A DNA stretch of 64,000 nt from Piedraia hortae CBS 480.64 (Eukaryota), in the NCBI GenBank assembly GCA_010093745.1, contig MU005965.1, forward strand, positions 62,001 through 126,000. The letters are read 5' to 3'. Shown in pieces: positions 36,993 through 62,904 of the stretch (position 1 is its first letter; each line of letters opens with the position of its first letter). The position numbers and the translations under genes are program-made. The notes beneath the pieces were generated by a model. The model was not told where the DNA came from. It saw nothing but the letters and a program-made list of their open reading frames with translations, and ran no database searches.

Positions 36993-37934
36993 CTACCTTC
37001 CCATCCACCCCCCATCAACGACAACAACCTCCCCGGACACAAACCTACTAGCCTCGCTTGCGAGGAAAACAACCGGCCCCCCAAAATCCTCCGGGGTCCC
37101 CCACCTTCCCATCGGGACCCTCCCCAGAATCTCCCTCTCCCTGGTTTCATCCCTCTGTAATGCCTCATTCATCTCCGTAGCGACATATCCGGGGGCAATA
37201 GCATTAACCCTAACCCCCCTACCCGCCCACTGATTCGACAACGCACGCGTAAGCGTCACTACACCCCCCTTCGAAGCCGCATACGCGGGAACGTTGATTC
37301 CCCCTTGGAAGGAGAGTAGTGATGCGATGTTTATGATGCTTCCCCCGGGTGGGGTGCGGGATAACATATGCGCTCCTACGTCGCGGGAGAGGAGCCAGAG
37401 GGAGGTTAGGTTTACTTGGAGGACGGAGAGGAAGGCTTCTTCTGGGAAGGACTCGGGCGCGTGGCGGGACTGAACGCCGGCGGCGTTGAGGAGGATGTCG
37501 ATTTCCACGCCGGTGGAGAGGAGGGTGGGGATGCAGGAGCGGACGGATTCTGGGGAGCTGAGGTCGAGGGGGTGGATGGTGCAGTGTCGACCAAGGGAAC
37601 TGATGAGGTGTTGGGTGTGCGTGTTTGAGGTGTCGCGCTGAGTGGGGTTAGATTTTTTTTTTTTNNNNNNNNNNNNNNNNNNNNNNNNNNNNNNNNNNNN
37701 NNNNNNNNNNNNNNNNNNNNNNNNNNNNNNNNNNNNNNNNNNNNNNNNNNNNNNNNNNNNNNNNNNNNNNNNNNNNNNNNNNNNNNNNNNNNNNNNNNNN
37801 NNNNNNNNNNNNNNNNNNNNNNNNNNNNNNNNNNNNNNNNNNNNNNNNNNNNNNNNNNNNNNNNNNNNNNNNNNNNNNNNNNNNNNNNNNNNNNNNNNNN
37901 NNNNNNNNNNNNNNNNNNNGGTGGGGATAACCAT
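36993..37934 (-). CDS. Short-chain dehydrogenase, KduD/gluconate 5-dehydrogenase-like (5' part hidden in gap)
   Basis: Visible exon 36993-37637 follows a CTAAC..CAG acceptor; motifs IINIASLLSFQGG, YAASKG and VNAIAPGY. Possible ATG at 37934. Confidence 0.88.
   Translation of the reverse strand: MVIPTXXXXXXXXXXXXXXXXXXXXXXXXXXXXXXXXXXXXXXXXXXXXXXXXXXXXXXXXXXXXXXXXXXXXXXXXXXXXXXXXXXXXXKKKKSNPTQRDTSNTHTQHLISSLGRHCTIHPLDLSSPESVRSCIPTLLSTGVEIDILLNAAGVQSRHAPESFPEEAFLSVLQVNLTSLWLLSRDVGAHMLSRTPPGGSIINIASLLSFQGGINVPAYAASKGGVVTLTRALSNQWAGRGVRVNAIAPGYVATEMNEALQRDETREREILGRVPMGRWGTPEDFGGPVVFLASEASRFVSGEVVVVDGGWMGR
37665..37919. other. Assembly gap
   Basis: N run next to poly-T. Confidence 1.
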
Positions 37935-38173
37935 TTAGTCTGCAGGAGGAACCGGAGTAGAGCTTCGATATGCAGAAATACTAGTTAGGAGATTATTACA
38001 ATGCATTTTTGGTGGCATTGGAATGGATAACAGCTATGCTCGATACATATATCAGTCGACGGGGAATTTTAGTCGACAGGATTGTCCATAAATTTGAGCA
38101 CTGCTACATCGGTCAGTGCCTGCAATGGCCAGAGTCTGGGTGCAATATTACATGATTACTTTATCTGCTCAGT

Positions 38174-39244
38174 TCAGTCGCTATCGCTATCGTAATTCAC
38201 CAACGGAATAGCCGCCGGTACTTCTGCCTTTGACTCTTCCGCCTTTGCCTTTGCCTGTGCAGCATACCAGACTTTATCAGGGGCTTCATAACCAGGAAGG
38301 CCAAATGAGCCCTCGATGCACCGCCTCTTCCTCTCCTCTTCCGGATCCGCGCCGTTGTACGGCCTACCCTCAGTCTCTGCAACGACCGAAGCGGACAGGA
38401 CACTGCGAATGGCCTCTGCCGCTTCCTCTTCAAGACGTCGATGCTCTCTTTTCTGCGCGGCGGGATTAGGGTCGACGGTGGCCCATCGCACGTTCAAACA
38501 CTCGTCGTGATCGAGTTTCTGATGAGCCATGGCCTCCTTTGCGAATTCTGCGTTTGCAAGGTGAACATACGTTACGAACGCAACGCCACGGGAGGGAAGG
38601 ACGCGTATCCGTTCAACTTGGCCCCATTCCTGGAAGTGTCTTGCAACGACCTCTTCAATATCATCAGTCACGTGTATCCTGCCGACATAAAGCGTGCGAT
38701 TGATTCGCAGAAAAGTGCCAACGCCGCCCATGTCGTCCCTGTAGTCGCTAAACTTGTCTCGCCCAAAACAGTCGACGTTGCTGGGGAACATGTCTCCAAA
38801 CTGCCCGCCTCTCCCATCCGTCTTGCCGATGCGGCTATTGGGCAGCCGGTGCAGGTACTCGCAGTCCGATCCCTTTGGACACAGTCCGCGCGCAAAGAAG
38901 AGGCAAAAGTAGCTCCCTTGGATCTTGTCCGCCTTGGTGTAGCCCGTATCCAGCGCAATGTTGCATCGGCCTTGGGATTGGTACTGCGACGCCAACGCGT
39001 CTTCGCGATCGCCGCCAGACCATTTGTTGTACCAGATATTGTATATTGTACCCGTCTGCGGCGCTTGGCCGGTCTTGAGATTCGCCGGGTCCTGCTGCGG
39101 CCGCGCCGGACGTCGCCGGCGTTTGACAATCTTGGTCCGCCGCACTTTTTGCACAGCGCCATCAGCTGGGTTGGATACGACAACCGCCGTTTCCGCTGCT
39201 GCTGCATCTTCTTGCGCTGACGTCGCTTCTTTCGTTGCTGCCAT
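38174..39244 (-). CDS. CWC2: Pre-mRNA splicing factor Cwc2 (CCCH zinc finger plus RRM)
   Basis: YNIWYNKWSGGDRED, CLFFARGLCPKGSDCEYLH, YRDDMGGVG and RRM; ATG at 39244. Confidence 0.95.
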   Translation of the reverse strand: MAATKEATSAQEDAAAAETAVVVSNPADGAVQKVRRTKIVKRRRRPARPQQDPANLKTGQAPQTGTIYNIWYNKWSGGDREDALASQYQSQGRCNIALDTGYTKADKIQGSYFCLFFARGLCPKGSDCEYLHRLPNSRIGKTDGRGGQFGDMFPSNVDCFGRDKFSDYRDDMGGVGTFLRINRTLYVGRIHVTDDIEEVVARHFQEWGQVERIRVLPSRGVAFVTYVHLANAEFAKEAMAHQKLDHDECLNVRWATVDPNPAAQKREHRRLEEEAAEAIRSVLSASVVAETEGRPYNGADPEEERKRRCIEGSFGLPGYEAPDKVWYAAQAKAKAEESKAEVPAAIPLVNYDSDSD

Positions 39245-39696: not shown

Positions 39697-41363
39697 ATGG
39701 AGATGAACTACGATGCCGAGAAGTTGCATCGCATCGAGCAGGAACTCCATGCTGAGATCCTACCGGGCACGGAAATCATGACGGATGTCGGCGACGTTCG
39801 CTTCGTCAAAGGCGGTTCTCATGTCTTGGTCCCTCAGCCATCCGACGACCCGCACGATCCTCTGTGAGTCGATTCTTAATTGTTCAACCCGCACTGCTGA
39901 TATTCGACAAAGTAATTGGAGCCGCAAGTGGAAGATTATGTGTATTGTATCGGCCACAACTGTTTCCTTTACCCAAGGTCTGGGACCTCTGGCTTTGGCA
40001 CCCATGTTTCCCTTGTACATGAAAGACTTTGACTCCAGTCTTCCCGAGGTCATCAAGTTTACCGGCGTTGCTGTCCTTGTTCTGGGCTTCTCCAATTTCA
40101 TATGGGTACCTTTGAGTACAGCGTTTGGGAGACGACCAGTCTATATCTTTTCCCAGCTTCTATGCTTCGTCTCATCCATTTGGCGAGCACTGGCCACAGA
40201 CTATGCTAGCTTCATGGGAGCATGTGTCCTCAACGGAATCGCAGCTGGACCGGGTGAAAGCATCCAACCCGCAGTCATCTCAGATATTTTCTTTCTCCAC
40301 GACCGTGGTTTCTGGATGACAATGTACTGGACCTTTTACCTCTCCTCTCTCATGATCGGGCCCATCCTCTCCGGCTCCGTCTCTCTGCACGTTGGATGGA
40401 GGAACTTCTGGTGGCTGAACACAGCCATGATCGGCGTCTCACTCCTCATGATCATCTTCATGTTCCCCGAAACCAAATGGCACCGTCCTCATCCCAACGA
40501 ACTCGGAAAAATCGATGCCACATCAGACGCTTCCACCAAAGAAGACCCATTCCTCGACCAAGGCCATCCCGGCAAGAAACAATGGGGAATCTACACTCCC
40601 AGCCAAAACCCCTTTAAATCAATCGGCATCGAACTCTGGACGCCCTGGAAACTATTCGCCTTTCCCATCGTCGAATTCGCCGCTTTTGTGAGCTCCTGGT
40701 CCGCCAGCGTCCTCTTAACCCTCAACCTCACCCAATCACATCATTTCGCCGCCCCTCCATACAATTTCAGCCCCCAAACAATCGGCTTTACCAATTTCGC
40801 AATCCTCATTGGAGCAATGATCGGTCTCGTCACCGCTGGTCCATTGTCAGACTGGGTTAGCGATCGTGCGACTAGAAAGAACAACGGTGCGTCCCCATCA
40901 CCCCCCTTACTGCAACCCAACTAACAAAAAGGCGCCAGGCATCCGCGAGCCCGAAATGCGCCTTCCCACCATGATTCCCTACATCCTCATCATGATTCTC
41001 GGCAACTTCATCGCCGCATTCGGCATGCAGCACAAATGGCACTGGGCCGTTATCGTCATCCTCGGCTATACCTGTGTCGGGATCCAAGTCACTGCGTTAC
41101 CTTCCATCGTAACAACATACAGCGTCGACTCGTATAAACCCGTTGCGGCGTCAGTCATGGTTGCGGTTACGGTGAATAAGAATGTCTGGGGGTATGGCTT
41201 CTCTGAGTTTTTGGTTCCGTGGTTGGAGAGGCAGGGGTACGTTCCGCCCATTATGACGAATATGTGTTTGCTTGTGCTGTGGTGCGCATTTGGGGGGGTG
41301 TTTTATCGTTATGGGAAGGTGTGTAGGAGGTGGAGTAGGGGGAGTAAAGTGCATTTGATGTGA
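39697..41363 (+). CDS. MFS transporter (Hol1/DHA1-like)
   Basis: Introns 39864-39912 and 40887-40938; motifs PQPSDDPHDPLNW, FGRRPVY and REPEMRL. Confidence 0.9.
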
Positions 41364-41959: not shown

Positions 41960-42314
41960 CCTGTTGTATTCAAGCATCGCCGCTAGCGCGTATGCGGGGC
42001 ATTTGCATAGCAAGTCAGCGATGCCTCCTACACTACCAGCTGTACCCTAGGTTTTTCCCTCACAGAGGTTTTCCCTCAGGGCCATGTCATATGTGACATG
42101 GTGTATGCGCCCTGCTAGTGTACGATGTGACGTCACCGGCCCACCGGTATAGAATATTTATTCTGACGTCCCCTCATAGAGATAGATAGTCCTTCACACT
42201 GTGATATCGACAGTGGTATTGACTCATATCCATCTACATCTGTCCTGTCCCCGTTTCCGTCTATTGCTTCGTTCTCTTAGTTCGGGCCGTTGCGCACTCT
42301 CACCCACGGGAGCC
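41960..42314 (+). repeat. Repeat module A (about 350 bp, palindrome-rich); inverted copies at 45426-45583 and 46748-47100
   Basis: Long reverse-complement matches, for example ccctcacagaggttttccctcagggccatgtcatatgtgacatgg. Confidence 0.93.
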
Positions 42315-42319
42315 CAATC

Positions 42320-42716
42320 GCTACAGAAAACAATTTCATCTTGAATCTCCATGGGCTTGTTCCCGAATCTTCTGGCATTTTCATTGTGCTCGTTGTAAGA
42401 GCGCAAAATCTCCCTTCGTCGATGGTGAGTATCCTGGGCTTATTCTACCCCATCCGCACTGCCTCAGCAACTTTGAGAGGTCTTTCCGTCCTTCCATCCC
42501 TGGGAAGCAAATGGACTTTTCCGTACAGAGAGGTTTCTGGCTTCACGAGGCTACATCCTGCCCTATGACAGGCTCGCCTTGGGGGCAAAGGTTTTCTTGT
42601 CGCGCGAGGTGCGTAATGAACTTTTCCATCATCTCGCACGTCCAAGACATCCGCTTTTCCGCTGCAATTATTGTGTTCTGGTTGGCGTCTTCACTTGTAG
42701 AAGATGGGGTAGACAT
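42320..42716 (-). mobile_element. Myb/SANT-like ORF relic (PIF/Harbinger accessory-protein-like)
   Basis: KRMSWTCEMMEKFITHL, then LLRQCGWG*, then SYNEHNENARRFGNKPMEIQDEIVF, spread over frameshifts and stops. Confidence 0.5.
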
Positions 42717-43432
42717 GATGCGTTGACGATTGCGGCGATCGAGAGTTTAGCCAGAGATGTGCGGAAATCCAAGCCGCTCTGCTCTGAGATGGGGTTAAAA
42801 AAAAAACAGCTGCACCTTCAGCCTTAGTTAGAACTGTCGGGTCGGCCAGCTGTGAATCTAGGTTTCGTAAAATCTGAAGGGGAAAGTCCGACGAGTGCAT
42901 TGAATGCATATATTCAGGTTGCCTTTGCGCACGGCCCACGTTGGAGGAGCTTAGGTAGAGGCCGACACTTCTCAGGGGCTTGCCACCAAAGAAGGAAGAT
43001 TTCCTCGTGACGAAGCACGATCCCGTTGATGCTCCATGCGTGATAGGTGACGTGGTCTCGGTGGATGTGATTAGGCCTTGGCTAGCGTGAGTGATGTTCA
43101 GCACTTCACCTCACCACACTACACATGCATAGACACACACATGCGTGCTTTTTACATAATTTGCCTATCCCATCTTTCCGATAGATTTCCTCCAAAATCC
43201 GGTTGCATTGAACGCCCCCTCATCAGACACTCCGGCGCTGCGGATAACTTAACCCGTTTTTAACAGGTATGACTCTACCCACCTCCTGAGCGGGGGTTGA
43301 TCCCCCTGACTGATTTTCATAAGTACTCCCTGGTTCCCAACCTCGACACCGATCCTACTATCACCCTCTATCCATTTCCACTAACGTCATCATCCCGCCC
43401 ACACGCAAACAGAATATAATCCAAATCACAAC

Positions 43433-44230
43433 ATGTGGGACCTACCCATGGGACATGTTCCCAATGGCCTACTCCCGTATCATGGATTCGGCCAATCCAC
43501 CTACATTTTCTCATCACCTCCCAAATCAATTCCACTCAAGACCTGGATGCCGCCCCCCGAGCCAGTCCCACAAAAAAACTGGATTCTGGAACAATACCAC
43601 GAATTTCCCCTACCCCCAACCCCTCCCACCTACTCGTCCGCCATCGAAACATTTTATTTCACAGTCAAACAACCTGAACACATTTTCACCACCATCGAAA
43701 AATTGCCCAACCTTCGCGAGCTGCGAATAAACCTCAACCCAACACCCACAACATGGCGCTCCCAATCCCTCGACTTTGCACGGCAACTCCCCCGCCTCAA
43801 AGCCCTTGAGAGCCTCGAAACCCTCGAAATCCATTTCGTGCATCGACACCAAGGTGAATTTAGTAGAGAGTACTGCTTTCTTGAGCAAGCTTTCATGACC
43901 GAAGCTCTCCAGTCGCTGAGAAATCTTAGGGAGCTGCATCTCTGGACGAAGACTGGTCTTGGAAAGATGGTCATGGGCGCGCTGGAGCAATGTTGTCCGT
44001 ATATAACGTCGTTGTCGGGGGTGATTCAGGATACATTTTATGAGGAGATGAGCGAGGAAAACCTGAAGTATTTGTCACTAACGCGGACGCTGTGGGTTCA
44101 ACTTGAGAACATAGGGCAGCAGGAAGACGCGTCTACAGATGTGTCTGATGGAACAAGTTCTCAAGGGACTAGTTTCACCATCGAACCTGAACGAAACGCT
44201 CATCGTCGTCCGGTATCGTGTTCATTGTGA
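43433..44230 (+). pseudogene. LRR fragment of the F-box/LRR family, lacking the F-box
   Basis: TIEKLPNLRELRINL, LKALESLETLEI, LRNLRELHL and PYITSLSG parallel the C-terminal half of the 7946 gene. Confidence 0.65.
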
Positions 44231-44443
44231 GGATAACCTCTGCTTCCAGCGTTTTGGAGGTCTGATGATGAGCTGCTGTGAAAGAAGTGGACATGGAAGA
44301 GAGGCTTGAAAAGGTCTCGCTGATGTGTCGCCAGCCCCATTCTGAACACTTTCACCGTGTCACTACCCATCGTCCTGATTTTTGCCAAGTCAACATTCCA
44401 ACTTCGTCAAGATGCCACTTCACACAAGTAAAATTCCCAAAAC

Positions 44444-44610
44444 GATTCCCCTTCCCTTCGAGATTTTGGTCGACATAGCAACAGATCCGGAAGATGACCA
44501 CGTTCTCATTAATAAGCGCATTAATATCTTCAGGCTGTGAAGAAATCATGAAAATGGTCATCGAATCGCCCTTAGTCGGCAGCAATACCTTGCGCGATCC
44601 ATTCCCATGC
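44444..44610 (+). pseudogene. F-box N-terminal relic
   Basis: cttcccttcgagattttggtcgacatagcaacagatccggaagatgac is nearly identical to 29093-29140. Confidence 0.7.
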
Positions 44611-44760
44611 CGACAAGAAGTTTCACTGTGAGCGTGAAAAATCCTCTGCTTCTATCATTTTGAGGTGGATGCTTGCATGGACTGATCTATGCAAGGTGTT
44701 AAACGTGTACTAACGTCTTTTTTGTTTTTTGTTTTTTTTTTCCTTTTTTTTGTTTTTTTT

Positions 44761-45425
44761 NNNNNNNNNNNNNNNNNNNNNNNNNNNNNNNNNNNNNNNN
44801 NNNNNNNNNNNNNNNNNNNNNNNNNNNNNNNNNNNNNNNNNNNNNNNNNNNNNNNNNNNNNNNNNNNNNNNNNNNNNNNNNNNNNNNNNNNNNNNNNNNN
44901 NNNNNNNNNNNNNNNNNNNNNNNNNNNNNNNNNNNNNNNNNNNNNNNNNNNNNNNNNNNNNNNNNNNNNNNNNNNNNNNNNNNNNNNNNNNNNNNNNNNN
45001 NNNNNNNNNNNNNNNNNNNNNNNNNNNNNNNNNNNNNNNNNNNNNNNNNNNNNNNNNNNNNNNNNNNNNNNNNNNNNNNNNNNNNNNNNNNNNNNNNNNN
45101 NNNNNNNNNNNNNNNNNNNNNNNNNNNNNNNNNNNNNNNNNNNNNNNNNNNNNNNNNNNNNNNNNNNNNNNNNNNNNNNNNNNNNNNNNNNNNNNNNNNN
45201 NNNNNNNNNNNNNNNNNNNNNNNNNNNNNNNNNNNNNNNNNNNNNNNNNNNNNNNNNNNNNNNNNNNNNNNNNNNNNNNNNNNNNNNNNNNNNNNNNNNN
45301 NNNNNNNNNNNNNNNNNNNNNNNNNNNNNNNNNNNNNNNNNNNNNNNNNNNNNNNNNNNNNNNNNNNNNNNNNNNNNNNNNNNNNNNNNNNNNNNNNNNN
45401 NNNNNNNNNNNNNNNNNNNNNNNNN
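44761..45425. other. Assembly gap
   Basis: N run between a T-rich tract and repeat module A. Confidence 1.
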
Positions 45426-45583
45426 CACTAGCAGGGCGCATACACCATGTCACATATGACATGGCCCTGAGGGAAAACCTCTGTGAGGGAAAAACCTAGG
45501 GTACAGCTGGTAGTGTAGGATGCATCGCTGACTTGCTATGCAAATGCCCCGCATACGCGCTAGCGGCGATGCTTAAATTCAAC
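45426..45583 (-). repeat. Repeat module A, truncated by the gap
   Basis: Near-identical reverse complement of about 41963-42120. Confidence 0.92.
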
Positions 45584-46535
45584 AATTTCGAACGATCAGG
45601 AGATTAGTCTGTAGCAGGCAATCTTTTGCCGGCTGTTGTATAAGAGTTGGCTGACATGTCATTTGGCACGATTTCTCGGTGAAGAGGCAGCATTCTGAGT
45701 CAAGTCGGAGAACGTTGGGCTGCGTCCATTCAATGTAAATTTTTGCGTATGCGCGAACGGCGTTTTGGTGCTGCAGTCATTGTCTGACACCTGCCTGAGG
45801 TCAAATATGATGACCTTTTAGGAATGTGGATGTGATACAACTCTCACAGAACGATGTCATGTATAATATTACGGCTAATGCCGTTCGGGTGGCGCCGTGA
45901 GGTGGGGCAGGCTTCGCACACAAATTCACAATCCGTTCTCCTTTCTTCTCTGACAAACACACCATCACAAACATCTTGCACTACCGCCATGACTCGTCAT
46001 TTCTTTTATACTTCTCATTCCTCTCCAGCAGTTCAGCATGTGGTACAATGTCTTGACCGCCATATCAAGAACTTCGCTGTGCTCAATCTCCGCTACACCC
46101 CTGGTTGTCAGACGCCTGCCTTAGATAGATAGGGTACCGGACTTTCCAGGGTTTTACCTCATGGAGGATGTTTCTCTGGAGCGTGGTTACGTCAAAGGAC
46201 GCTGTCACCGCGAATGCGGTTCGGGCCGGGGAGAGAGTCTAGAGCAGTCTTGCGGTGCAAGCCTTCTCTTGACCTCAGACGGATTCCATAGTGATATATC
46301 ACACACACTATTGACTGCGTCACCATTCACATATATCGAAGTGATGTGAGTAGATCCCTCCCTCCTTCCGATACCGGTTGACTGCAATCACCGTGACCGC
46401 CGCAGCCGCTGTGGTTGGTATTGGCGTTTACTCATCACGATGTATGAGTCTTTTATTTACCACTGCATCCACCGCACCAACCACAACTACCATATCCATT
46501 GCGCGCAGCAGCTCAATGCTACCAGACAGCAGGCC

Positions 46536-46737
46536 TATGTTACGGTGCTCAGAGGAAAATGTTCAATAAGTCCCAACAACGAGGACAATCCAAACTGCTA
46601 TCTACTGGGAAGCTACGACACTATAAACCAATCCAGAAGCGCCATCCATTCGCGCGTGGTAGCGAGCGTAGCTATGAATAACTAGCAGGGCGCGTCGGTG
46701 TATCAAACCCACTGTGCGCTTAGGCGGCGCGGGTCGT
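46536..46737 (-). repeat. Repeat module B
   Basis: Reverse complement of 16006-16204. Confidence 0.9.
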
Positions 46738-46747
46738 GTAGATATTC

Positions 46748-47100
46748 AGCTCTCGTGGGTGAGAGTGCACAGCGACCCGAAGAGGACGGAGCGATAGACG
46801 GAATCAGGGACAGGAAAGATGTAGATGTATGTAAGTAAAAATACCAGTTGCAGTATGGTAGTGTGAATGACTATGTGTCTCTATAAGGGGACGTCAGAAT
46901 GAAAATTCTCTACCGGTGGGCCGGTGACGTCACGTCGTACACTAGCGGGGCGTATTCACCATGTCACATATGACATGACCCTCAGGGAAAACCTCTGTGA
47001 GGGAAAAACCTAGGGTGCAGCCGGTAGTGTAGGAGGTATCGCTGACTTGCTATGCAAGTGCCCTGCATACGCTCTAGTGGCGATGCTTGAATCCAACAGG
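46748..47100 (-). repeat. Repeat module A
   Basis: Reverse complement of 41960-42314 with moderate divergence. Confidence 0.92.
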
Positions 47101-50100: not shown

Positions 50101-50210
50101 ACTATGTACCTAGTGATCGTGCAAGGGGCTCGATCGAGGGGCCCATCAAGGAATGCAGGTCTGGTTTTCTTGGTTCCCTTGCCTGCCTGGTGCTCTCTGA
50201 CTTTGTGCTC

Positions 50211-50735
50211 TCACAACAGTTTGTACTTGGGCTGAGTTGGCTGCTTTGGTTCGGCCGTTTTGTTTCCGGGCGTCGATAGCTCGCCCTCGGCCTGGTTCAG
50301 CGCTTCCAACAGTACTTCGTCCTCCAAATCGCTGTCATCATAGGATGTCTCGTCTGGATTGCGTTTCACTGCTGTACATTTCTGTGGTTTGGGATTCTTC
50401 GATTTAGGTTCCCCTGATGTATCTGCAACATTTTTGCGCTTGGTCTGCCCAAAAAAGGCCCCTAGATGGTATTGGTTGGTCAGATGTCCGTACTGGTCGC
50501 ATACCCTATCTCTTCCCAGTATTGGCTTTTCTTCTTTTTTGGCGCGCGATGCCTCCTCTGCTTCCTTCTTCCTCAATGCAGCCTGGCAATCTTTTTCTTT
50601 GATAAATTCTGCGCGCTGGTCTAACTCCATAGCCCGAGCCAGTTGGCGCTTTTCTTTTTCGGTCATGGTTGGATAGCCACGCGCTCTGTAGGCGGCTTTT
50701 GCTTGTCTACTGGTCATTGGTGGGATCTTCGACAT
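50211..50735 (-). CDS. Hypothetical charged protein, possibly truncated
   Basis: 174-aa ATG-initiated ORF, PPMTSRQAKAAY..coiled coil..LGAFF, resembling conserved fungal hypothetical proteins. Confidence 0.5.
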   Translation of the reverse strand: MSKIPPMTSRQAKAAYRARGYPTMTEKEKRQLARAMELDQRAEFIKEKDCQAALRKKEAEEASRAKKEEKPILGRDRVCDQYGHLTNQYHLGAFFGQTKRKNVADTSGEPKSKNPKPQKCTAVKRNPDETSYDDSDLEDEVLLEALNQAEGELSTPGNKTAEPKQPTQPKYKLL

Positions 50736-52369
50736 TGTGATGGTATATGCATCCGATCGTGCGTGATCGTTGATTGAAAAATAAGGACAGATGGAGTAGG
50801 CAATGGCTTGTGAAACACCTAAGTGTGTGTATGTGTGTGTGTGTTGTGGTGAGGTGAAGCAGCACTGTTGAGGAATGAATTAAATAAATGTCTTGGCAGA
50901 GTTTTGACCTCAGGCATCTTGTGGAGAGGGTCCCGCATTCGACACATCACATTGAGGTCACACTTTACGAGAGAGGCCACGCAATGCAAGAAGCCGATCA
51001 TCAATGCAATCGTCGGTAGTCTGAAGACGCAACTCGACTTCGCTGAATCAGGGTCCGATACTCACAGCCCGGAAATGACTGATAGGAAAAAGTTTATCGA
51101 ACTCACTGCAGCTCAAAAGTATTGTGAGAGATACTATTAATCTTTTATGTTGCTGTGAACCTACTTCACACGAGGAGAGTCTTAAGCGAAGACCTCGGGG
51201 CATTTGGGTGGCTGAAAAATATGTATGGGTCATTGCGGCCAGCTTGCAAGCATCAAATGGTGGCAGCTATGCTCACTATTTATTATTATCTACGTTTTTA
51301 ACAGCCTTGATTCTGACGACATCCCTGTCTACCCTTCAGCTGCACCGCTCGACCTTTCCGTATCTTGACGACAACTCTGACCATCCAAATTGCCATTCAC
51401 GAACATCTAAGGCCCCCTCATCTTTCAATCGGACGTACGAATCGTAGTATGTGTTCATTCGACAACCACCGGCCCAGCTGCTGGTTACCGACGTATTTCT
51501 GACATTGAAATTGGAGTCAAAAATTGCGAAGCCGCCACAAAGCGTGGCGTGATGACGCTCAGTTCTCCGTCTGGAGACACTGCCATATGCCGCATTCCGT
51601 CCCATAATTTCCACCGAGAAGTGCGACGACCCAAGAATGGCACTTATAGAGGTCATTGTGCTATTCATAATATCCGGGTAGGTTCTCATTGCCCACTACC
51701 ATTTGTTAGCTCCCCGGAGAAACTCACAAATCGGAGCTGCTTACCACTGCAAAGCTGTGATACGATATTGCTGTATTCGATTGGAGGTGGACATGCGGCG
51801 CTGTTGAAAGAGAGAGAGAAGACGAAGAATAGCAAAAGGAAGACGTGGGCCCACACTCTGGACACGAGTGTTCGCTATTATCAATCAACGGTTAGATATC
51901 ATAAGACACACTGGGAAAGAGCGTAGCCGTGGCAATACATACCGCACGCGAACTTCGGTTGGCGCTGTCAACTAATTCATAGGTGGAAGCAGTTGCCATC
52001 CTTCTTGCTGTTACCTGTGCAGGGTGCGTGAAACGTCATCGATCCCTGAAATGTGGACCTGTTTGCCGTACACAATCGCACTCGACGGGTTTAACTCCAG
52101 GTTGCAGGCTGGGACCACCTCGTATTTGGCGCCGGGCCCTCTCGAGCCTGAGAGAGAGCGTTGGTGGCTGATGTCCGCGCCCAACACAAATCAGCGCGTA
52201 TCAGTTGCCATTCGGTTGCAGTGGACCTAAATGACTACCGCCTCCACTGGCGAGGGCCAAAAACGATAGGCGCAAAGTAAGGCTGGACTTGTTTTCCGTG
52301 ACGGTTCTCTGAGGATAAGGTCATCCTGGTCGGCAGACTCTCCTCGGTATCAACATCAATTCTTCCAAC

Positions 52370-53258
52370 CTTGCCCAATATCCGGGTGCTATAAATGTCT
52401 CATAAGGTTCTCAGCGTGCCAACTATTCGCAATTTTGCACACATGTTACAGACATTCATCGTCACAATCGGATACCCACGAGGCCATTTTTGAGACCATA
52501 GGTACAATGGTCAACCTTCAAGAGCTTAAGATCGTCGTCGATTCAACTCCAGATATCTGGAGGTCATACGGCTCTTCACAGCACTTCCCACCATTTGATA
52601 GCATTGACAAAGCTGCGGAGCCTCAAAATCAGTTGGCCCCCAGAGGACGATGATCCATTTAGTCGAGAGTGCTGCGGTTTGTATGTATTTGACATCAAGG
52701 AGGTCGCACCGTGGCTTGGGGAGCTTGGGGAGCTTGGGGAGCTTCAACCTTGGACAGGGAGCGGCCTTAGAGGAGACACTGTGTTGACGTTGGGACAGCA
52801 TTGTCTCAAACTTACGTCACTATCTGGACTGGCTATGGATACTGAAGTCGTCAGTCTGCTGCATCACAGTCAGCGGCTGTTCCCATGCCTCAAAACGCTC
52901 ACGCTTGACCATATTGTTATGACCCCGTACGTCGACCACTCTTATGATTCGAAATCAAAAATTGTTCTTTCATGGTAAGTAATAAGATGTCAACGATGTT
53001 TCGGACATGGCCCACGAATTGAACAGGTTCGACTAGGAAAGGTTACACTTCTTGGCCCAGGTTCTGGAATACCATGTACCCGAACTCAAGGAATTCGTAG
53101 TATATGGTCACCTTGGTTTGTTTTCAAGGGCGATGGCTAAGCGGTTCGAGGCCGGAAAAAAAAATAGCAGAAAATATTCGCGAAGATATGGATGTTGGGT
53201 GAAAAGAATAGCTCTAGATGGTTGCAAACTTTCATCTGATATTTATAGTTTTAGATAG
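52370..53258 (+). pseudogene. C-terminal F-box/LRR paralogue relic retaining the family intron
   Basis: ttgcccaatatccgggtgcta; FETIGTMVNLQEL; GTAAGT at 52975 and ttgaacag at the same relative position as intron 9148-9201; YHVPELKEFVV matches YHASKLKEFVV. Contains stops, frameshifts and (GCTTGGGGA)x3. Confidence 0.75.
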
Positions 53259-53274
53259 GATACCCACGTCTGAC

Positions 53275-53697
53275 GAGTGCCATGTTGTGGATGTTGGGTT
53301 GAGGTTTGTTCGCAGCTCGCGAAGGTTGGGCAATTTTTTCGATGGTGGTGAAAATGTGTTCAGGTTGTTTGACAGTGAAATAAAATGTTTCGATGGCGGA
53401 CGAGTAGGTGGGAGGGGTTGGGGGTAGGGGAAATTCGTGGTATTGTTTCAGCATCCAGTTTTTTTGTGGGACTGGCTCGGGGGGCGGCATCCAGGTCTTG
53501 AGTGGAATTGATTTGGGAGGTGATGAGAAATTGTAGGTGGGTTGGCCGAATCCATGATACGGAAGTAGGCCATTGGGAACATGTCCCATGGGTAGGTCCC
53601 ACATGTTGTGATTTGGATTATATTCTGTTTGCGTGTGGGCGGGATGATGGCGTGAGTGGAAAATGGTTAGAGAATGAGAGATGCCGTGTCGAAGTTG
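53275..53697 (-). repeat. Inverted near-identical duplicate of about 43338-43761
   Basis: Both copies encode MWDLPMGHVPNGLLPYHGFGQ..; this copy has an extra A frameshift after TIEK. Confidence 0.95.
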
Positions 53698-54079
53698 CAG
53701 AGCGACATCTTGTTGACGGAAATGGAGAATTCAAGCTGAAACCAGCCGTAGATTTGGTCAGGTTGGCAGTAGCCACAAAAATCCAGCAGATGGTCGTGAA
53801 AGGCCAATCTTTGGCGTAAAAGGACGTAGAAGCGACTACATGCAAATGCACACTTATCTGGTCATGGGCGACAATTCACTGAGCAATTTAAACGGAGATA
53901 CCTCTGTTTTACTCAAAGACTCGTGGCCACGATCGCAGCTCATAGAACATGTCACGTCCCCACTCACCTGCGTCACAGTGCGCCAAGCTCCAGATTACCC
54001 CACAGCGCCGACAGCCCACAGCGGGGTCCCCGGTCGGGACTCCCCGCTTACCCCGCCGAACCACTCCACCACTTTCAAA

Positions 54080-55239
54080 ATGTCAACCAGCATCGCCTCC
54101 GTCCTCCACGGCCCCAAAGACCTCCGCCTCGTATATACCCCCTCCCACAACGTCACCCCGTCCCTCAACTAATCCCCAACCAGGAGCCCCGCTCCCTCCC
54201 AACACCCGCCCCCGACGAACTCCAAATCCGCATCACCGCAACGGGCCTCTGTGGCAGTGACCTCCACTACTACCACACCTTCCGCAACGGCTCCATCTAC
54301 GTCCTCGAACCCTTGAGCCTCGGCCACGAAAGCGCGGGCATCGTCGTCGCCGTCGGGTCATCCATTTCCCCCTCCACCTTCTCAGTCAACGACAAAGTCG
54401 CAATCGAATGCGCAATCCCCTGCTCAACCTGCAGTTTCTGCACCTCCCACCCAAGCCGGCAGAACCTGTGTCCCAACCTCCGGTTCCGCTCTAGCGGGAA
54501 GCTGTATCCACATTTCCAAGGGACGCTGCAGCAGAGAATAAACCACCCCGCACGATGGTGTTATAAGCTTCCTGAGCAGATGGGGTGTGAGATGGGGGCG
54601 TTGTTGGAACCGTTGGGAGTGGCGGTGCATGCGTGGAGGCGCGCCCAAGCGGAAAGGGGGGAGAGGGTTCTTGTTCTCGGTGCGGGGGCTGTAGGGCTGC
54701 TTTGCGCGGGTGTAGGGATGCTTCGCGGGATGGATGTCACGATTGCGGATCTGGATGTGGGGAGGGTCGGGTTTGCGGTGGAGAATCGCTTCGCGGGGAG
54801 GAAGGTTGTGTTGTCCCCGCCAGAGAAAGACGCGGGGGTGGAGAGGATGGAGGGGATAGCGAGGGAAGTGGGCGAGTTTGATCTTGTGATGGAGTGTACC
54901 GGCGTGCCGGCGTGTGTGCAGTTGGGTATTTATGCGGCTAGACCGGGGGGAAGGGTTATGCTCATTGGGATGGGACATCCCGTGCAGACACTGCCGATTG
55001 GGGCTGCGGCGCTGAGGGAAGTCGATCTACTGGGGGTTTTTAGGTATACGGATACGTATCCGGAGAGTATGGAGATTGTGAGTAAAGCGTTGGATGATCC
55101 GAAAGCGCCGGATATTGGGAAGCTCGTTACACATAGGTTTAGGGGACTGGAGAGTGTGCCCGATGCGTTTGAGAGGGCGGGAAAGAGTAGAGACGAGGAG
55201 GGGAATGTGGTTGTTAAGGTTATGGTCGTGGATGAGTGA
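54080..55239 (+). CDS. Zn-dependent MDR polyol dehydrogenase (sorbitol/xylitol/L-idonate dehydrogenase-like)
   Basis: Intron 54131-54183; motifs GLCGSDLHYY, LGHESAG, CSTCSFC..C, GAGAVG and GVFRY. Confidence 0.92.
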
Positions 55240-55620: not shown

Positions 55621-56540
55621 CTACGCCTTCCCCTGCTCCCTGAGCAGCATCTTCTCCTGATACCCCTTGAACACCTTCCCACTCAGATCAAACACGGGAA
55701 GCGGACACGGCAACCCAACCGTCTCACACATGGTCACAAGTAGGAGATACCACCCCATCACCATCGCCAGCACCCCAAACCTACATCATGTCAGCAACCC
55801 CTTCCCCCCCATCAATCAACAAGAGTTTTCAACTCACCCCCCTGCAATCTTCAACCTATGCAGCGCCCACTCCGCCGACTCCGTCGGGACCCCATGATGC
55901 GCACCGGCAATACTCGCAAACATCCCCGTCAGCGCAAAAAAGAACACAATGAAAACGACATTAACCCTTATCGACGCGATGGCAATCATCGCGCAGAAAA
56001 GCGCCATGATTGCGTAGTGAAACGTCTGGGAGGAGTTGTATATCTTCCCTGCAGGGCCTCCGAGTTTCGCGAACGCGGCGATGTTTTGCGTAATGGGGTC
56101 TTGTTGGTAAGCGATTGCGCCCCAGTGCGCGCCAAAGAGGACGAAAAGGGCGAAGGGGAAGGTGTTTCCTAGGATGAATTCCGCGAGGCCAGCAATGACC
56201 ATGCTGATGACGCCGATCATGTAGTAGTCCCCCAGGACGCCGACGGTGGAGTAGGGGGGCACGGCGCCGGCGGTGCCAAGGAGGCAGAGGACGGTGGAGG
56301 TTAGGGGGACGGTGAGGCCGATTGGACCTAAAAGGGTTGGGTTTGCTGGGACGGGCTTAGAGGGGTTTAGGGTGGATTTGGGGGGTTGGATGTACCGAAG
56401 CGTTTGGCATAGTCGCCGTGACGGGGCTGGTTGGGCTGGAAGAACATGCGCTCATATTGTGCTTGCGAGAGGTTGATGGTTACGTTGCGGGTTAGCTCAG
56501 CGCTGCCGGGGAGGTCGGAGAGGGGGATTTCGTCGGGCAT
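55621..56540 (-). CDS. GPR1/FUN34/YaaH (ATO) family acetate/carboxylate transporter
   Basis: Introns 56346-56395 and 55781-55837; spliced FANPTLLG, EFILGNTF and LPVFDLS motifs. Confidence 0.88.
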
Positions 56541-57364: not shown

Positions 57365-59545
57365 CTACTTCATAACAACATACTGATCACTCCTGTACCA
57401 GCCTTCGGGAGTATTACCCTGCTGCGCATAAACCGCCGTATGATTATCATACCTCAACAGTGAAGGCCGACAGGCCATTCCAGCTGCAGTTTGCTGTGTG
57501 TGATGGTATGCCCAAGTTGCCAGCTGTGTGCTGTTTTGGTCGTAGTTATAATCACAGACGTAATATAGCTCTGGGCTGCTGCACAACAATGTTCCAGGCA
57601 CACAAGGCAGGTAGCTTGAAACGTCGCTGGCGCGAACGTAGTCGAGGCCCGTGCTGTTGGAGTTGCTGCCTGTAGGGAGGGGTGGTGTTGCTGCACTAGG
57701 CTCTACCGGAGTTGCCGTTGGGTCGGTAGGGGCGCTATCGGTAGGGGATGGTAAATTGCTGCTTGTTGGGAGGTTGCTATCGCTTGGGAAGCCGGGTAGG
57801 GTGTCGGTTGGACTGTCGCTAAGCGTAACGTTTGAGTCGGTTGGAGTTGCAGCAGGATCGGTGGGAGTGGCGTCAGTGGGAGTAGAGTTTGTGGGAACGG
57901 CATCGCTGGGGGTGGCATCAGTTAGAGTGGCATCAGTAATAGATGGGATGCCACTGTCGATTGGACTGGCAGATGGCGTATCAGTTGGAAGGCCGCTTGT
58001 AGAGACCTCTGCGCTGGCTGATGGGCCATCACTGGGCTCCGGGTCAGACGGAGCATCAGTCGGGAAGCCCGCGGTTGGACCAGCAGTAGAACCAGCCGCT
58101 GGGCCATAGGTGATACCAGAGAGTGTAGAGTTCCAGCCATACGGAGGTGCAGCGCCGGTAAGAGTTGTCGTAGGAGCCGTACCCAACACATCGATGGAGG
58201 TAGCGGAGCCAATGTCGGTAGAGCCACTGTCAGTCTCCTCTGGAACGTCTGATCCAGTAGGGTCGTCTGGAGCGTCGGTAGCGGTGGCAGTAGGATCAAC
58301 AGTAGCATCCTGTGTAGTCGTGCTATTGCTCCATGGTCCGCCGGTTGGGATGGGAATGTAGAACGAGCCGCTCGCACCAGTGCCACCAGTTGCATGGATA
58401 ACGTCAGTCCCCATGGACACTACAGTGGTATCGGACGGCATTTCGGGCGAATCTGGGACAACCATGCTGGTCGCCTCAGGCAAGGAGCTCTGAGAGACAG
58501 TGTCGGTAGCTGAAGTGATGGCCTCCGTAGCGTCTCCCGAGGCATCCGTAGGGTCCGTAGCGTCTCCCGAGACATCCGTAGGGTCCGTAGCATCTCCGGA
58601 GACATCAGCAGGATCCGTAGCGTCAGCCGAGTTATCGGTGGATGCGGGGTCCGCAGTAGCTGTTGCATCTGCAGTGGTTGTCAATGCGTTGTCACGCCTC
58701 ATGAGCGGAGTTGCAGTTGGGGCAAGCACAACCGAATATCCCCCATCTGGTATCGATAAGAATTCATAGTGCCTCTTTTGTACCGGTAAGTCGTCCTCCA
58801 CGCCGGTGGGTTCCTCGTCCACAATACCAACATCACGTTTCACCTTCTCAGGTTCGTCACAGACACCTGGAGTTGGCATCTTGTTCCGAACAGAAGGCCC
58901 ATATTCCACATCAGGTCCCGGGTGCGGATACACAACTTCGACGCCGGCCTTGGTCTTGCACTGGTTGTGGCCTTGGATGTTGGCTTTCCAAATGTAGGGC
59001 AGATTGTTGAACTGGCTGGACGCGGTCCTTCGCTGTTTTGGCGACGAGCGTTCTGTCGTTATACGGACCGGGGCGCAGTTCATATAAAAGTCTTGCTCGC
59101 CTCGGAGATTCTGCCAGGTCCAGGCCAAAAGCATATCGCCGGCAGGTGTGTAAGAGGGAACAGTGAATTTGTAGCTTCGGTCTAATGGACAACCGCCAAT
59201 GATGCTCTTGATGACGCGGAACGTCGCACCGTTATCGTTGGACAAGGCAATTTGGCAAGAGCCTCCGCCAAGGGGGTCGTTTCCAACCAGAGTAATGTTG
59301 TAAGTCGATCCGGCTGCATAGGTAGCCGATGGTGTCAAAGGCTGGGCTTGGTGATAGTGCTTGCAGGGAAAGTCGGAGCCATCATGTTTCAATGGTGCCT
59401 GCGTACTGAAGTCGACCTGACTCTTGCCATTGGCAGCATTGAGCCTGCTTTGGAAGGGATATGGCCAGCTCATCTCCATATTACCCCATGCGGAAGAACA
59501 CAGAAACAAAAGGCTGTAAAACACTGGCATCTTGGAAGAGGCCAT
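57365..59545 (-). CDS. Secreted AA11 LPMO-like protein lacking the His brace, with a long S/T/P/D linker and a Cys-rich C-terminal module
   Basis: Signal peptide then NMEMSWPYP; DFPCK, GGGSCQ, VIKSIIGGCP, LAWTW, FYMNCAPV. Start is 59545 or 59530. Confidence 0.85.
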   Translation of the reverse strand: MASSKMPVFYSLLFLCSSAWGNMEMSWPYPFQSRLNAANGKSQVDFSTQAPLKHDGSDFPCKHYHQAQPLTPSATYAAGSTYNITLVGNDPLGGGSCQIALSNDNGATFRVIKSIIGGCPLDRSYKFTVPSYTPAGDMLLAWTWQNLRGEQDFYMNCAPVRITTERSSPKQRRTASSQFNNLPYIWKANIQGHNQCKTKAGVEVVYPHPGPDVEYGPSVRNKMPTPGVCDEPEKVKRDVGIVDEEPTGVEDDLPVQKRHYEFLSIPDGGYSVVLAPTATPLMRRDNALTTTADATATADPASTDNSADATDPADVSGDATDPTDVSGDATDPTDASGDATEAITSATDTVSQSSLPEATSMVVPDSPEMPSDTTVVSMGTDVIHATGGTGASGSFYIPIPTGGPWSNSTTTQDATVDPTATATDAPDDPTGSDVPEETDSGSTDIGSATSIDVLGTAPTTTLTGAAPPYGWNSTLSGITYGPAAGSTAGPTAGFPTDAPSDPEPSDGPSASAEVSTSGLPTDTPSASPIDSGIPSITDATLTDATPSDAVPTNSTPTDATPTDPAATPTDSNVTLSDSPTDTLPGFPSDSNLPTSSNLPSPTDSAPTDPTATPVEPSAATPPLPTGSNSNSTGLDYVRASDVSSYLPCVPGTLLCSSPELYYVCDYNYDQNSTQLATWAYHHTQQTAAGMACRPSLLRYDNHTAVYAQQGNTPEGWYRSDQYVVMK
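58522..58625 (-). repeat. 30-nt coding tandem repeat (DATDPTDVSG, about 3 units)
   Basis: Repeated ccgtagcgtctcccga units. Confidence 0.85.
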
Positions 59546-60020: not shown

Positions 60021-60066
60021 AAACCAACACTAACCAAATTCATCCAACATTAACCATTATCAACCA

Positions 60067-60366
60067 ATGGCAGAAGAGGACAAGACGTCGCAGCTCAAGT
60101 CGGCGCTCTGGTTCTCCATCGGCCAGACGGTCGATGCGGTCGGCATGACGCAAGATTGCAATGCATCTCCCCATTTTATTGGCGGGTTGAGCGAATTGGT
60201 GTGGGCGCAAATCGAAAATGCGGCGTGCGATCTGGAAGCTTTTGCGCGTCACGCAGGGCGCAGCACCATATGCGATAAGGATGTTATTCTGTTAGCCCGC
60301 AGAAACGAGGGTCTGGAGCGCGTGCTGAGCACAACGGCCGACGAGGTGAAGAAAGGGAAGCGGTGA
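60067..60366 (+). CDS. MHF1: CENP-S/MHF1 histone-fold protein
   Basis: LKSALWFSIG..DLEAFARHAGRSTI..DVILLARRN. Confidence 0.93.
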   Translation: MAEEDKTSQLKSALWFSIGQTVDAVGMTQDCNASPHFIGGLSELVWAQIENAACDLEAFARHAGRSTICDKDVILLARRNEGLERVLSTTADEVKKGKR

Positions 60367-60421
60367 GCAGAGACGGAGCACATATCAACGCGGGCAATTC
60401 TAACTATCCATCTCTCTACGA

Positions 60422-61392
60422 TTACTGCTTGTCCGGGAAGCCCAAGTTCACACCAAAAGGAGGGTAGATGAAACGCGTCACGCCCTTCTTCTTGTGCAGT
60501 CCATTCAGCTTCTCCATGTCAGACTCATCAAGCTTCACTGTCTTCAAGTTCTCCTCAATGCGAGACGGCGTGACCGACTTCGGCAAGACCACGAGGCCGC
60601 GGTTAACTAGAAAGTCAGCATTGTCTCCATTCAACCTCGCACATCATTACCTTGATAGCTGATGCAAATGGTTCCGGGTCCAACATTGTGCTTCTTTGCC
60701 ACCTCGTTCAGAGCATCTTCCGAAAACAAAGGGCTTCCCGAACTTCCCAGCGGACTGTAGGCCTCGACGATGATGCCCTTTACGTTGCAGTATTTGATGA
60801 CATCGTCTTGCGGCAAGAGGGGGTGGTTCTCAATCTGATTAGCCGCCGGCGTGATTTCACACTGGGGCAGTAGCTCTTCGAGGAACTTGACAGAGTAATT
60901 GCTCACTCCAATGGCTTTTGTCTTGTTCGTCTTGGGAAGCTTCTCCATGGCCTTCCACGTCTTGACATGTGTCCACTCCTTGTCAAGGTCCCTGCTGCCA
61001 TCGGGAAGCTTTGGGGCAATGGGATCATTACCACTGGGATTCATCGGCACGGGCCAATGCATCAGGAAGAGATCAACATATTCCAAACCGAGGCGCTTCA
61101 GACTCTCGTCAAGACATGCCTCTGGAGTGCGGTGATAGGTGCACCACAGCTTGGTCGTTACAAAGACATCCTCACGCTTGCACACGCCAGCATCAAAGGC
61201 GGCCTTAAGGCCCTTACCGACCTCTACCTCATTGCCATAAACAAAGGCAGCATCGATGTGGCGATAACCACACTTCAAGGCCGTTTCGACCGCAGCCGTA
61301 ACCTCCCCAGGACCGCTCTGCCACGTCCCCAAGCCAACGGCGGGAATTGTGGCTCCCGTGTTGAGAGTAAAAAAGTGTGGGACGTCTGACAT
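60422..61392 (-). CDS. Aldo/keto reductase (Gcy1/Ypr1/AKR1A-like)
   Basis: IPAVGLGTWQS, GYRHIDAA..Y, TTKLW, LMHWP, LPKSVTPSRIEEN; intron 60607-60650. Confidence 0.93.
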
Positions 61393-61959
61393 CTTTTCTG
61401 GATAGAGGATGGAATTGGGTGTACGGTCAAGAATGAATTTTGCCAATGCTGGGTTCATGAAAACTCCGTCATCGAAGCACGACACAAATGACGTTATGCC
61501 AGGCCAACCTCTGCCCTTGACCACCCCGCCCTTACCCCACCACCCCGCCTTCTGGTTGACATTTGATGACAGCCCATGATGACACGTTGCCAATTCTCTG
61601 CTATACTCATGGATTTGGTGCCTGACTGACGCTGTCCCCGTTCGGACTTTGCAAGAGACGGTTGAGACGCATCCGTCAGTCACCGGACAAATGAGAAGCC
61701 AAGGGAGAAAGTTTCGCCGACGCGGAACGGAAAAAGGAGAAACAAGCTCTCCGGTGCCCTGCCCCATCCAGTCTAGCCCCTCCGAACGGAGCCCAAAAGA
61801 CGCATAATCAGGACGAAAGTTTTTCCGGCTCCGCCAGTTATATCGAAACTGACAAGCATCTGACACGCATGTTCTGTGGGTACAGCTCAGCTGCTCCGCT
61901 TATAATCGAGTCAATGTCATCATCCATGGCCCCCAATTCGCTTTCCTTTGAGTTGCAAG

Positions 61960-62904
61960 ATGTCCCCCGCCATTACCGATGATACTTTCAACACATCACG
62001 AGACGGTCAGGCTCTCGAGGAGGTTTCTGATGCAATCGACACTGTCAACGTGCTCAAGGCCAATCTGTATTCTGATGAAGCCCCTAAATTCGCCCACGGC
62101 AAGACTGCCTCGGAATTCCGCCAATATGAAGACGCCTGCTCCCGAGTAAAGAACTTTTACCAAGACCAGCACACAAACCAAACGTATGCTTATAATGTAG
62201 CCGCACGCAAAGCATTCCACTCCCGCGTCCGCGCCAGAATGACAATCTGGCAGGCCATGGAGAAGCTTAACACATTGATAGACGAGAGCGACCCCGACAC
62301 AGACCTCAGCCAAATTGAGCACCTGCTCCAAAGCGCAGAAGCGATTCGACGGGACGGCAAACCGCGCTGGTTCCAGCTTACTGGTCTGATCCACGATCTA
62401 GGGAAACTTCTTTACTTCTTCGATGCTCAGGGACAATGGGATGTTGTCGGTGACACTTTTCCCGTTGGCTGTGCGTTTGATGAAGACTCCATCATCTACC
62501 CCGGCAGCTTTGAAAACAACCCTGACATGAAACACGAGGTTTATTCCACGAAGTATGGGGTTTACGCTCCGGGATGTGGAATGGACGAAGTGCTGCTGTC
62601 CTGGGGACATGACGAGTACCTCTACAACGTTTGCAAAGAGCAGAGCACACTACCCGAGGAAGCGCTGGGGATCATCAGATACCACTCCTTCTACCCATGG
62701 CATACCGCGGGAGGGTACGGTTGGATGATGAACGAAAAAGACGAGAAGATCCTGAAGGCAGTAAAAGCATTCAACCCCTACGACCTGTACAGCAAAGCGG
62801 ACGGCTTACCCGACGTGCAAGAACTAAAAGCATACTACATGGACCTAATTAACGAGTTCTTCCCACCACGTGAAGGTGAGACGGAGAGAATTCTCGAATG
62901 GTAA
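61960..62904 (+). CDS. MIOX: myo-Inositol oxygenase
   Basis: DESDPD, HLLQSAEAIR, LIHDLGK, QWDVVGDTFPVGC, SWGHDEY, RYHSFYPWH, DLYSK. Confidence 0.96.
   Translation: MSPAITDDTFNTSRDGQALEEVSDAIDTVNVLKANLYSDEAPKFAHGKTASEFRQYEDACSRVKNFYQDQHTNQTYAYNVAARKAFHSRVRARMTIWQAMEKLNTLIDESDPDTDLSQIEHLLQSAEAIRRDGKPRWFQLTGLIHDLGKLLYFFDAQGQWDVVGDTFPVGCAFDEDSIIYPGSFENNPDMKHEVYSTKYGVYAPGCGMDEVLLSWGHDEYLYNVCKEQSTLPEEALGIIRYHSFYPWHTAGGYGWMMNEKDEKILKAVKAFNPYDLYSKADGLPDVQELKAYYMDLINEFFPPREGETERILEW

Follow-up and report, generated by a model that had tools for sequence, protein, structure and literature searches.

Scattered remains of a probable ancestral inositol-catabolism gene cluster in the fungus Piedraia hortae

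A 64,000-nucleotide stretch of the Piedraia hortae CBS 480.64 genome (hereafter the window; positions 62,001 to 126,000 of contig MU005965.1, from a 16.9-Mb assembly of 132 contigs) carries genes for a myo-inositol oxygenase (MIOX), an aldo-keto reductase (AKR), a zinc-dependent polyol dehydrogenase of the medium-chain family (MDR) and a KduD-like short-chain dehydrogenase/reductase (SDR), whose counterparts lie next to each other in many related fungi. The linkage of these four genes is inherited and not a product of chance; in P. hortae the ancestral adjacency has been split, and the SDR and MDR have changed at a raised rate. We consider it probable that the four genes descend from a cluster for a route leading from inositol through glucuronate, L-gulonate, L-idonate (by way of unclustered C2 steps) and 5-keto-gluconate to gluconate, which was secondarily broken up. 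A loose or disrupted myo-inositol catabolic cluster had already been proposed for this DNA from its letters alone (the sequence-only reading), a proposal that both linkage in relatives and the grouping of the predicted enzymes now favour.

Pfam searches of 29 translated frames, combined with reading of the raw sequence, recovered every gene that the sequence-only reading had named, where it had placed them. Their order is LARS(+), SDR(−), CWC2(−), MFS(+), a 12-kb block, MDR(+), ATO(−), secreted Ser/Thr-rich(−), CENP-S(+), AKR(−) and MIOX(+). The SDR (36993–37934, minus strand; Pfam adh_short_C2; start at 37934 uncertain), a putative 5-keto-D-gluconate reductase of the GluF/KgrA type, and the MDR (54080–55239, plus strand; Pfam; intron 54131–54183), a putative L-idonate 5-dehydrogenase of the GluE/IddA type, are divergently oriented as described. 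The AKR (60422–61392, minus strand; PF00248; intron near 60607–60651), a putative D-glucuronate reductase of the GAR1/GarB type, stands head-to-head with MIOX (61960–62904, plus strand; PF05153), their start codons being 567 bases apart. Housekeeping genes do intervene, with CWC2 between SDR and MDR and CENP-S/MHF1 between MDR and AKR, where the secreted Ser/Thr-rich gene also sits; spread over 24 kb and interrupted by five unrelated genes and the 12-kb block, the enzyme genes of the window lack the contiguity of a metabolic cluster. As a post-hoc estimate, the chance that MIOX would have an SDR, a polyol MDR and an AKR of any kind within 26 kb in a 16.9-Mb genome is ~1e-5, and synteny in relatives is a stronger test than such an estimate.

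In relatives, where the sequence-only reading had suggested looking, this linkage is tight. Among named fungal genomes in which both proteins were within the best 120 matches per search (picked by eye, with ordinal locus tags or accession numbers compared), SDR and MDR bear consecutive identifiers in 11 of the 12 with ordinal identifiers (B0A55_01256/7, LTR15_011685/4, LTR16_001518/7, M8818_006470/1, CBER1_00863/2, BST61_g8884/5 and LTR85_007723/4, together with Polychaeton, Saccharata, Curvularia and Aaosphaeria). In six further genomes the two lie on equal-sized contigs, and accession order there was kept out of the 11/12 count. MDR and MIOX are at most five genes apart in 9 of 10 genomes, and SDR and MIOX are three apart in Periconia; the linkage is conserved across distant genomes, as expected of a metabolic cluster.

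A metagenome scan with the MDR of a relative (P0008, 58% identical to the window MDR) gave 48 loci; clustered at 95% nucleotide identity these form 36 groups, and one group with 25% identity was set aside. The groups are mutually related and of unassigned taxa, and counts over them are not independent events. The SDR is head-to-head with the MDR within 1.2 kb in 15 of the 20 groups having at least 1.5 kb upstream. Where at least 10 kb of flank was available (13 groups), the neighbours comprise the SDR (10), a Gfo/Idh/MocA oxidoreductase (8), the AKR (7), a Fungal_trans_2 transcription factor (7), MIOX (6), CENP-S (4) and LARS (2), with CWC2, MFS and ATO genes in none of these groups and in none of the 48 loci. 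AKR and MIOX are head-to-head in six of the seven loci that hold both. One locus (L014) reads transcription factor, inositol dehydrogenase-like gene, SDR(−), MDR(+), secreted protein, CENP-S(+), AKR(−), MIOX(+), which is the order of the window without CWC2, MFS, block and ATO; another (L034) reads inositol dehydrogenase-like gene, SDR, MDR, MIOX, AKR, with no passengers; and several loci (L013, L018, L034, L044, L047) have a shuffled gene order with the enzyme genes still together. No 8-mer was common to more than four of eight SDR–MDR intergenic regions.

The same three oxidoreductase types are consecutive in two Sordariomycetes. Supplement 4 of PMC13158570 equates garB with NCU01906 and TrC1350W (GAR1), iddA/gluE with NCU01905 (or NCU07022) and TrC1351C, and kgrA/gluF with NCU01904 and TrC1352W, which places the trio of T. 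reesei and N. crassa in the order seen in the window, with the difference that the window copies are spread over 24 kb. The T. reesei strand letters in that table correspond to the orientation pattern of the window and of L044, the SDR pointing away from the MDR and the AKR facing it; the passages of the paper considered here neither remark on the clustering of the trio nor mention inositol. In the A. niger glucuronate pathway (GaaA/GarB, GluC/GurA, GluD/GurB, GluE/IddA, GluF/KgrA), as presented in the parts of PMC4870679, PMC5306355 and PMC5814732 considered here, the same types serve the first reduction, L-idonate oxidation and 5-keto-gluconate reduction. There, gluE shares a 455-bp promoter with gluD (PMC5306355) and gluF and garB lie elsewhere, whereas in the window the GluE-type gene has a GluF-type partner and stands in linkage with MIOX, with no clustered GluC or GluD. 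[quoted passage not shown] The bidirectional pairs gaaA–gaaC and gluD–gluE (described in PMC5306355) are likewise head-to-head genes of sugar-acid catabolism that share a short promoter; the inositol cluster differs in having two pairs, accompanied in relatives by a dehydrogenase and a regulator, and in that one pair is broken in P. hortae. Enzymes and pathway are of known kinds; the cluster arrangement was not found in print: the literature searched, which did not extend to the supplements of genome-wide cluster surveys, held no description of a MIOX–GAR–GluE–GluF cluster.

Within the SDR, the readable exon 2 spans 36993–37637, with the stop at 36993–36995; the first exon, which in homologues encodes about 45 residues including the TGxxxGxG cofactor motif, is hidden by an N run of 255 bases and left out of the public gene model (P0121). 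The protein retains the catalytic N, S and YxxxK as well as a C-terminal GGWMGR, as expected of a KduD-like enzyme of the GluF/KgrA type, is 57–66% identical to fungal homologues, and has KduD as both its best solved-structure match and its best NCBIfam match, the latter below cut-offs. According to the sections of PMC5814732 considered here, A. niger GluF has 265 residues and was first annotated as a 2-deoxy-D-gluconate 3-dehydrogenase, and its reverse primer, as published, translates by hand to a terminal GWMGR, an end that is common to the whole SDR family, the second Aspergillus group included. No second orthologue-level SDR was found in the P. hortae genome.

The MDR has an open frame with one GT-AG intron after codon 17 and its nearest relatives, at 52–60% identity, in Dothideomycetes. 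It retains the zinc ligands and the family motif FRSSxKxxPHxQGTL, and its D206, the Asp after the second strand, is invariant in the alignment and would fit NAD+ use. Its best NCBIfam match is the bacterial L-idonate 5-dehydrogenase (169 bits, below the cut-off of 469); among 50% identity representatives searched, no sequence was identifiable as A. niger GluE. The best solved-structure matches are sorbitol/ketose dehydrogenases, as would suit the animal-type glucuronate–xylulose ending that the sequence-only reading had also offered, in which the SDR would be an L-xylulose reductase and the MDR a xylitol dehydrogenase. However, against the yeast xylitol dehydrogenase 7y9p a paralogue on C38 reaches 277.7 bits and the window MDR 176.6 (queries of 359 and 351 residues), and against the arabitol dehydrogenase 3m6i a gene on C12 reaches 520.5 bits and the window MDR 174.4; the orthologues of both enzymes thus lie on contigs other than the window's, and the window MDR was rejected as an orthologue of either. 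In a FastTree tree of 39 rows it joins the cluster MDRs, apart from the xylitol dehydrogenase (XDH), LAD and SORD-like rows, with SH-like support of 89–94 on the enclosing branches, a moderate support for a zinc-dependent MDR outside those groups. Its genome holds three other polyol MDRs, 36–41% identical to it, and no second orthologue-level copy was found. Although the first two steps of the animal pathway (MIOX, AKR1A1, CRYL1, C11orf54, DCXR, SORD) are alike, the SDR is KduD/gluconate-5-dehydrogenase-like, and the middle enzymes of that route, with CRYL1, BKGD and DCXR named, are typically absent from fungi in the passages of PMC12337341 considered here; an animal-type ending is extremely unlikely. 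Structure scores, MDR tree and published trio instead suggest that MDR, SDR and AKR fall in groups of the GluE, GluF and GAR1 type.

Of the remaining two enzymes, the AKR has an intact spliced frame of 308 residues (135 bits against PF00248) and 39–45% identity to other AKRs of P. hortae. Its position, matching that in the published trio, suggests a GAR1 type, and its motifs presumably resemble those of GAR1. MIOX matches PF05153 with 404 bits (E 2.8e-121) against a cut-off of 25, over positions 1–244 of the 249-position profile, which places it well within the family, and is 63–74% identical to fungal homologues. In contigs from a public run (X1) the AKR intron is spliced out; they also cover exon 2 of the MDR, not exon 1.

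An old ascomycete inositol-catabolism cluster would have consisted of two head-to-head pairs, AKR/MIOX and SDR/MDR, of which the window holds scattered remains. MIOX cleaves myo-inositol to D-glucuronate, a reaction established for the family, and the P. hortae enzyme would do the same, probably with inositol as its physiological input. D-glucuronate, which T. reesei Gar1 is established to reduce, would be converted to L-gulonate by the GAR1-type AKR, and unclustered enzymes would then invert C2, from L-gulonate through 2-keto-L-gulonate to L-idonate; the first of these C2 steps, L-gulonate oxidation, has no assigned gene in any fungus. A. niger GluE oxidises L-idonate to 5-keto-D-gluconate, which GluF reduces to D-gluconate (both established, in the parts of PMC5306355 and PMC5814732 considered); by likeness to them, the MDR would carry out the first and the SDR the second of these reactions. 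A gluconokinase gene with one intron is present elsewhere in the genome, and its product would feed gluconate to the pentose phosphate pathway.

Relatives add two candidate members to the set. The best NCBIfam match of their Gfo/Idh/MocA protein is inositol 2-dehydrogenase (TIGR04380, 253 bits, cut-off 355), and among solved inositol dehydrogenases it matches 4mkx with 174.7 bits; this IolG-like partner, found beside the cluster at L013:11126-12193, L014:2854-3984, L034:6234-7336 and L047:12055-13212, points by its family likeness to inositol independently of MIOX and probably feeds other inositol isomers into the route. In Leptographium, as far as the consulted text of PMC9788770 goes, pinitol co-induces MIOX and iolG, and MIOX is required for use of myo- and chiro-inositol. 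The Fungal_trans_2 factor (L014:878-2551, L017:9162-10349, L018:13052-14209) is a candidate inositol-pathway regulator and probably controls the gene set. A further locus (L059:2954-9375) holds an inositol dehydrogenase-like gene, a partial MDR match, the transcription factor and a sugar porter, with no SDR match; near the cluster in this one of 48 loci only, the porter was not counted as a member. Lower-bound searches of the P. hortae genome found no orthologue of the IolG-like dehydrogenase or the Fungal_trans_2 factor, and since the best matches reach only 28% for the dehydrogenase and 24% for the factor, both look lost in this lineage. A speculative extension, to which we give little credence, would make the IolG-like oxidoreductase the missing C2 step on L-gulonate and the ancestral cluster a near-complete inositol-to-gluconate module; loss of that enzyme would then explain why the downstream MDR and SDR, but not the upstream AKR, are accelerated. 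Row 160 of supplement 4 of PMC13158570 lists A. niger NRRL3_06932, two numbers from garB (NRRL3_06930), among glucuronate-reductase candidates, and our guess would be that it is the inositol-dehydrogenase orthologue, with MIOX between it and garB.

The P. hortae cluster has come apart between SDR and MDR, whose exons are separated by 16.5 kb as against 0.6–1.0 kb in relatives. In relative-rate counts (window against ingroup loci, with two outgroups each, the comparisons sharing sequences), lineage-unique changes number 39–50 against 9–11 for the SDR and 51–65 against 21–29 for the MDR, each being faster in 6/6 comparisons with p<0.01 in all 12; MIOX is significant in 3/6, the AKR in 0/6 and LARS in 0/2. 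Broken promoter, faster SDR and MDR and apparently missing dehydrogenase and regulator are what one would see if, after a real ancestral cluster, SDR and MDR had come under relaxed selection or taken new substrates, so that only MIOX and AKR still cooperate. We regard this as unlikely: both the MDR and the readable part of the SDR have open frames with catalytic and zinc residues intact, each gene is the sole copy of its kind found, MIOX too is somewhat faster, and the run X1 contigs reach the MDR. On the account of a split inositol-to-gluconate cluster, a rearrangement would have inserted CWC2, the MFS gene and the block of repeats and F-box pieces into the promoter shared by SDR and MDR, possibly driven by the repeats, while dehydrogenase and regulator were apparently lost and SDR and MDR sped up.

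The sequence-only reading had ascribed the split to this repeat-rich accessory block (41960–53761), which consists of repeats, F-box/LRR fragments, a POPLD fragment, an inverted duplication and a 665-base N run. The block does interrupt the cluster, and its repeat-rich character holds, with 2685 of 12600 bases having a second copy within the window against 0/8400 and 0/10000 in the flanks; as the whole cause of the split it was ruled out, because CWC2 and the MFS gene are likewise missing from relatives' clusters and the split therefore exceeds the 12-kb block. An interspersed repeat of ~366 bp occurs three times in the block, and 40 of its 390 candidate places in the 17-Mb genome were scored, giving 39 other copies 88–91% identical; with window matches at 41960-42325, 45426-45584, 46737-47100 and 30141-30256, it could be a short interspersed element, a miniature inverted-repeat transposable element or a solo long terminal repeat. 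A 426-bp inverted duplication lies near the block ends (43338-43761 / 53275-53697), and a second dispersed repeat of 202 bp, 92% identical and inverted, at 16006-16205 and 46536-46737. The F-box/LRR pieces belong to an expanded family with 24 matches across at least 10 contigs, whose copies, intact and broken, occur in the window at 7946-9148, 29084-30104, 31340-31586, 43385-44227 and 52365-52927. A short match to POPLD (the RNase P POP1 C-terminal domain) at 47625-48221 is perhaps a captured gene fragment.

Several observations weigh against the inositol-to-gluconate account, beginning with the linkage itself. SDR and MDR are unlinked in Eremomyces, the sole exception among the 12 genomes; MDR and MIOX are 436 genes apart in Peltaster; locus L044, 20 kb long, contains no MIOX; and garB, gluE and gluF lie apart in A. 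niger (NRRL3_06930, 00319 and 02652 in supplement 4 of PMC13158570). To some extent the linkage reflects plain microsynteny, since CENP-S, LARS and the gene for the secreted protein also accompany the cluster in close relatives. Were all of it neutral, the genes serving unrelated polyol or stress functions, such passengers and the dispersal in A. niger would follow naturally; yet the enzyme genes remain linked in loci that lack these passengers (L034, L044, L051), two Sordariomycetes likewise carry the trio as consecutive genes, and the co-travelling set includes an inositol-dehydrogenase-like gene, which makes this explanation very unlikely.

Other reservations concern function. The GluE, GluF and GAR1 labels say what the proteins probably work like, the support for orthology being indirect and drawn from the order and strands of the genes, the families into which they group and a published table. 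With its 5' exon hidden in the N run, the integrity of the SDR is judged from the visible exon only. Aspergilli have at least two KduD-like groups, including that of EHA27001.1, to both of which the window SDR is 61–62% identical, and its tree, with a single usable outgroup on a very long branch, does not show which is closer (branch 0.96). D-glucuronate does not induce the gar1 homologue of A. niger (89, 59, 130 FPKM, fragments per kilobase per million; PMC4870679 Table 1, from the part of that paper considered), and N. crassa has the trio and yet does not grow on D-glucuronate, two observations that fit an inositol-fed module without demonstrating one. Finally, a lower-bound search found four 2-hydroxyacid dehydrogenase genes in P. 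hortae (a formate dehydrogenase, a partly unreadable phosphoglycerate-dehydrogenase-like gene and two others) and among them no clear GluC or GluD orthologue.

L-gulonate and L-idonate differ at C2 only, and a self-contained route of four steps without C2 inversion would have the MDR oxidise L-gulonate at C5 to D-fructuronate and the SDR reduce this to D-mannonate. Such a route would agree with the lack of a clear GluC or GluD and of any 2-hydroxyacid dehydrogenase motif in the 48 related loci; moreover, E. coli KduD has been proposed, as a hypothesis only, to reduce fructuronate (in the text of PMC3578941 considered), and D-fructuronate was not among the substrates of the GluF test library as given in the portion of PMC5814732 considered. 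In A. niger, however, glucuronate can no longer be used when gluC is deleted, 2-keto-L-gulonate builds up when gluD is deleted and 5-keto-D-gluconate when gluF is deleted, and an enolase-superfamily search of P. hortae (a lower bound, with UxuA outside it) returned only enolase and no further dehydratase; we judge the four-step route improbable. The same search found no L-galactonate dehydratase, a weak argument for glucuronate rather than galacturonate as the AKR substrate. A search for DUF1907/C11orf54 had no match in P. hortae, with control genomes equally silent, and is no evidence of absence. Lower-bound searches also failed to turn up a gene of the glyoxylate-reductase type or a sugar-acid dehydratase of the enolase superfamily, a hint at trimmed sugar-acid metabolism.

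LARS (33478–36882, plus strand; Pfam), a cytosolic leucyl-tRNA synthetase that served as rate control, adjoins the cluster in L022, L024, L038, L047 and L050. CENP-S/MHF1 (60067–60366, plus strand; PF15630) and the secreted Ser/Thr-rich protein (57365–59545, minus strand) are passengers in close relatives; the latter combines a conserved cysteine-containing N-terminal domain (weak Kre9/KNH match) with a long Ser/Thr/Pro repeat and has tblastn matches in 8/48 loci at 46–56% identity. Outside the conserved cluster are the splicing factor CWC2 (38174–39244, minus strand; Torus and RRM domains), the MFS_1 transporter (39697–41363, plus strand; Pfam) and the ATO/Gpr1/Fun34 transporter (55621–56540, minus strand; Pfam), two introns of which have spliced joints in run X1. 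The sequence-only reading had listed MFS and ATO with the pathway as transporters; both were rejected in that role given their absence from all related loci, and the best profile of the MFS protein is not an inositol/sugar porter (MFS_1 92 bits against Sugar_tr 40 bits). No tRNA genes were called in the window.

In summary, fungal inositol breakdown past glucuronate is unsettled, one step of the glucuronate pathway having no gene, and a conserved cluster joining MIOX to genes of the GAR1, GluE and GluF types suggests internal inositol as a main feed of the glucuronate pathway, which would fit the retention of the trio by N. crassa without growth on external glucuronate. The cluster also points to two candidate genes in relatives, one for an enzyme resembling inositol dehydrogenase and one for a putative regulator, and the P. 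hortae window shows such a cluster falling apart in a genome of 17 Mb.

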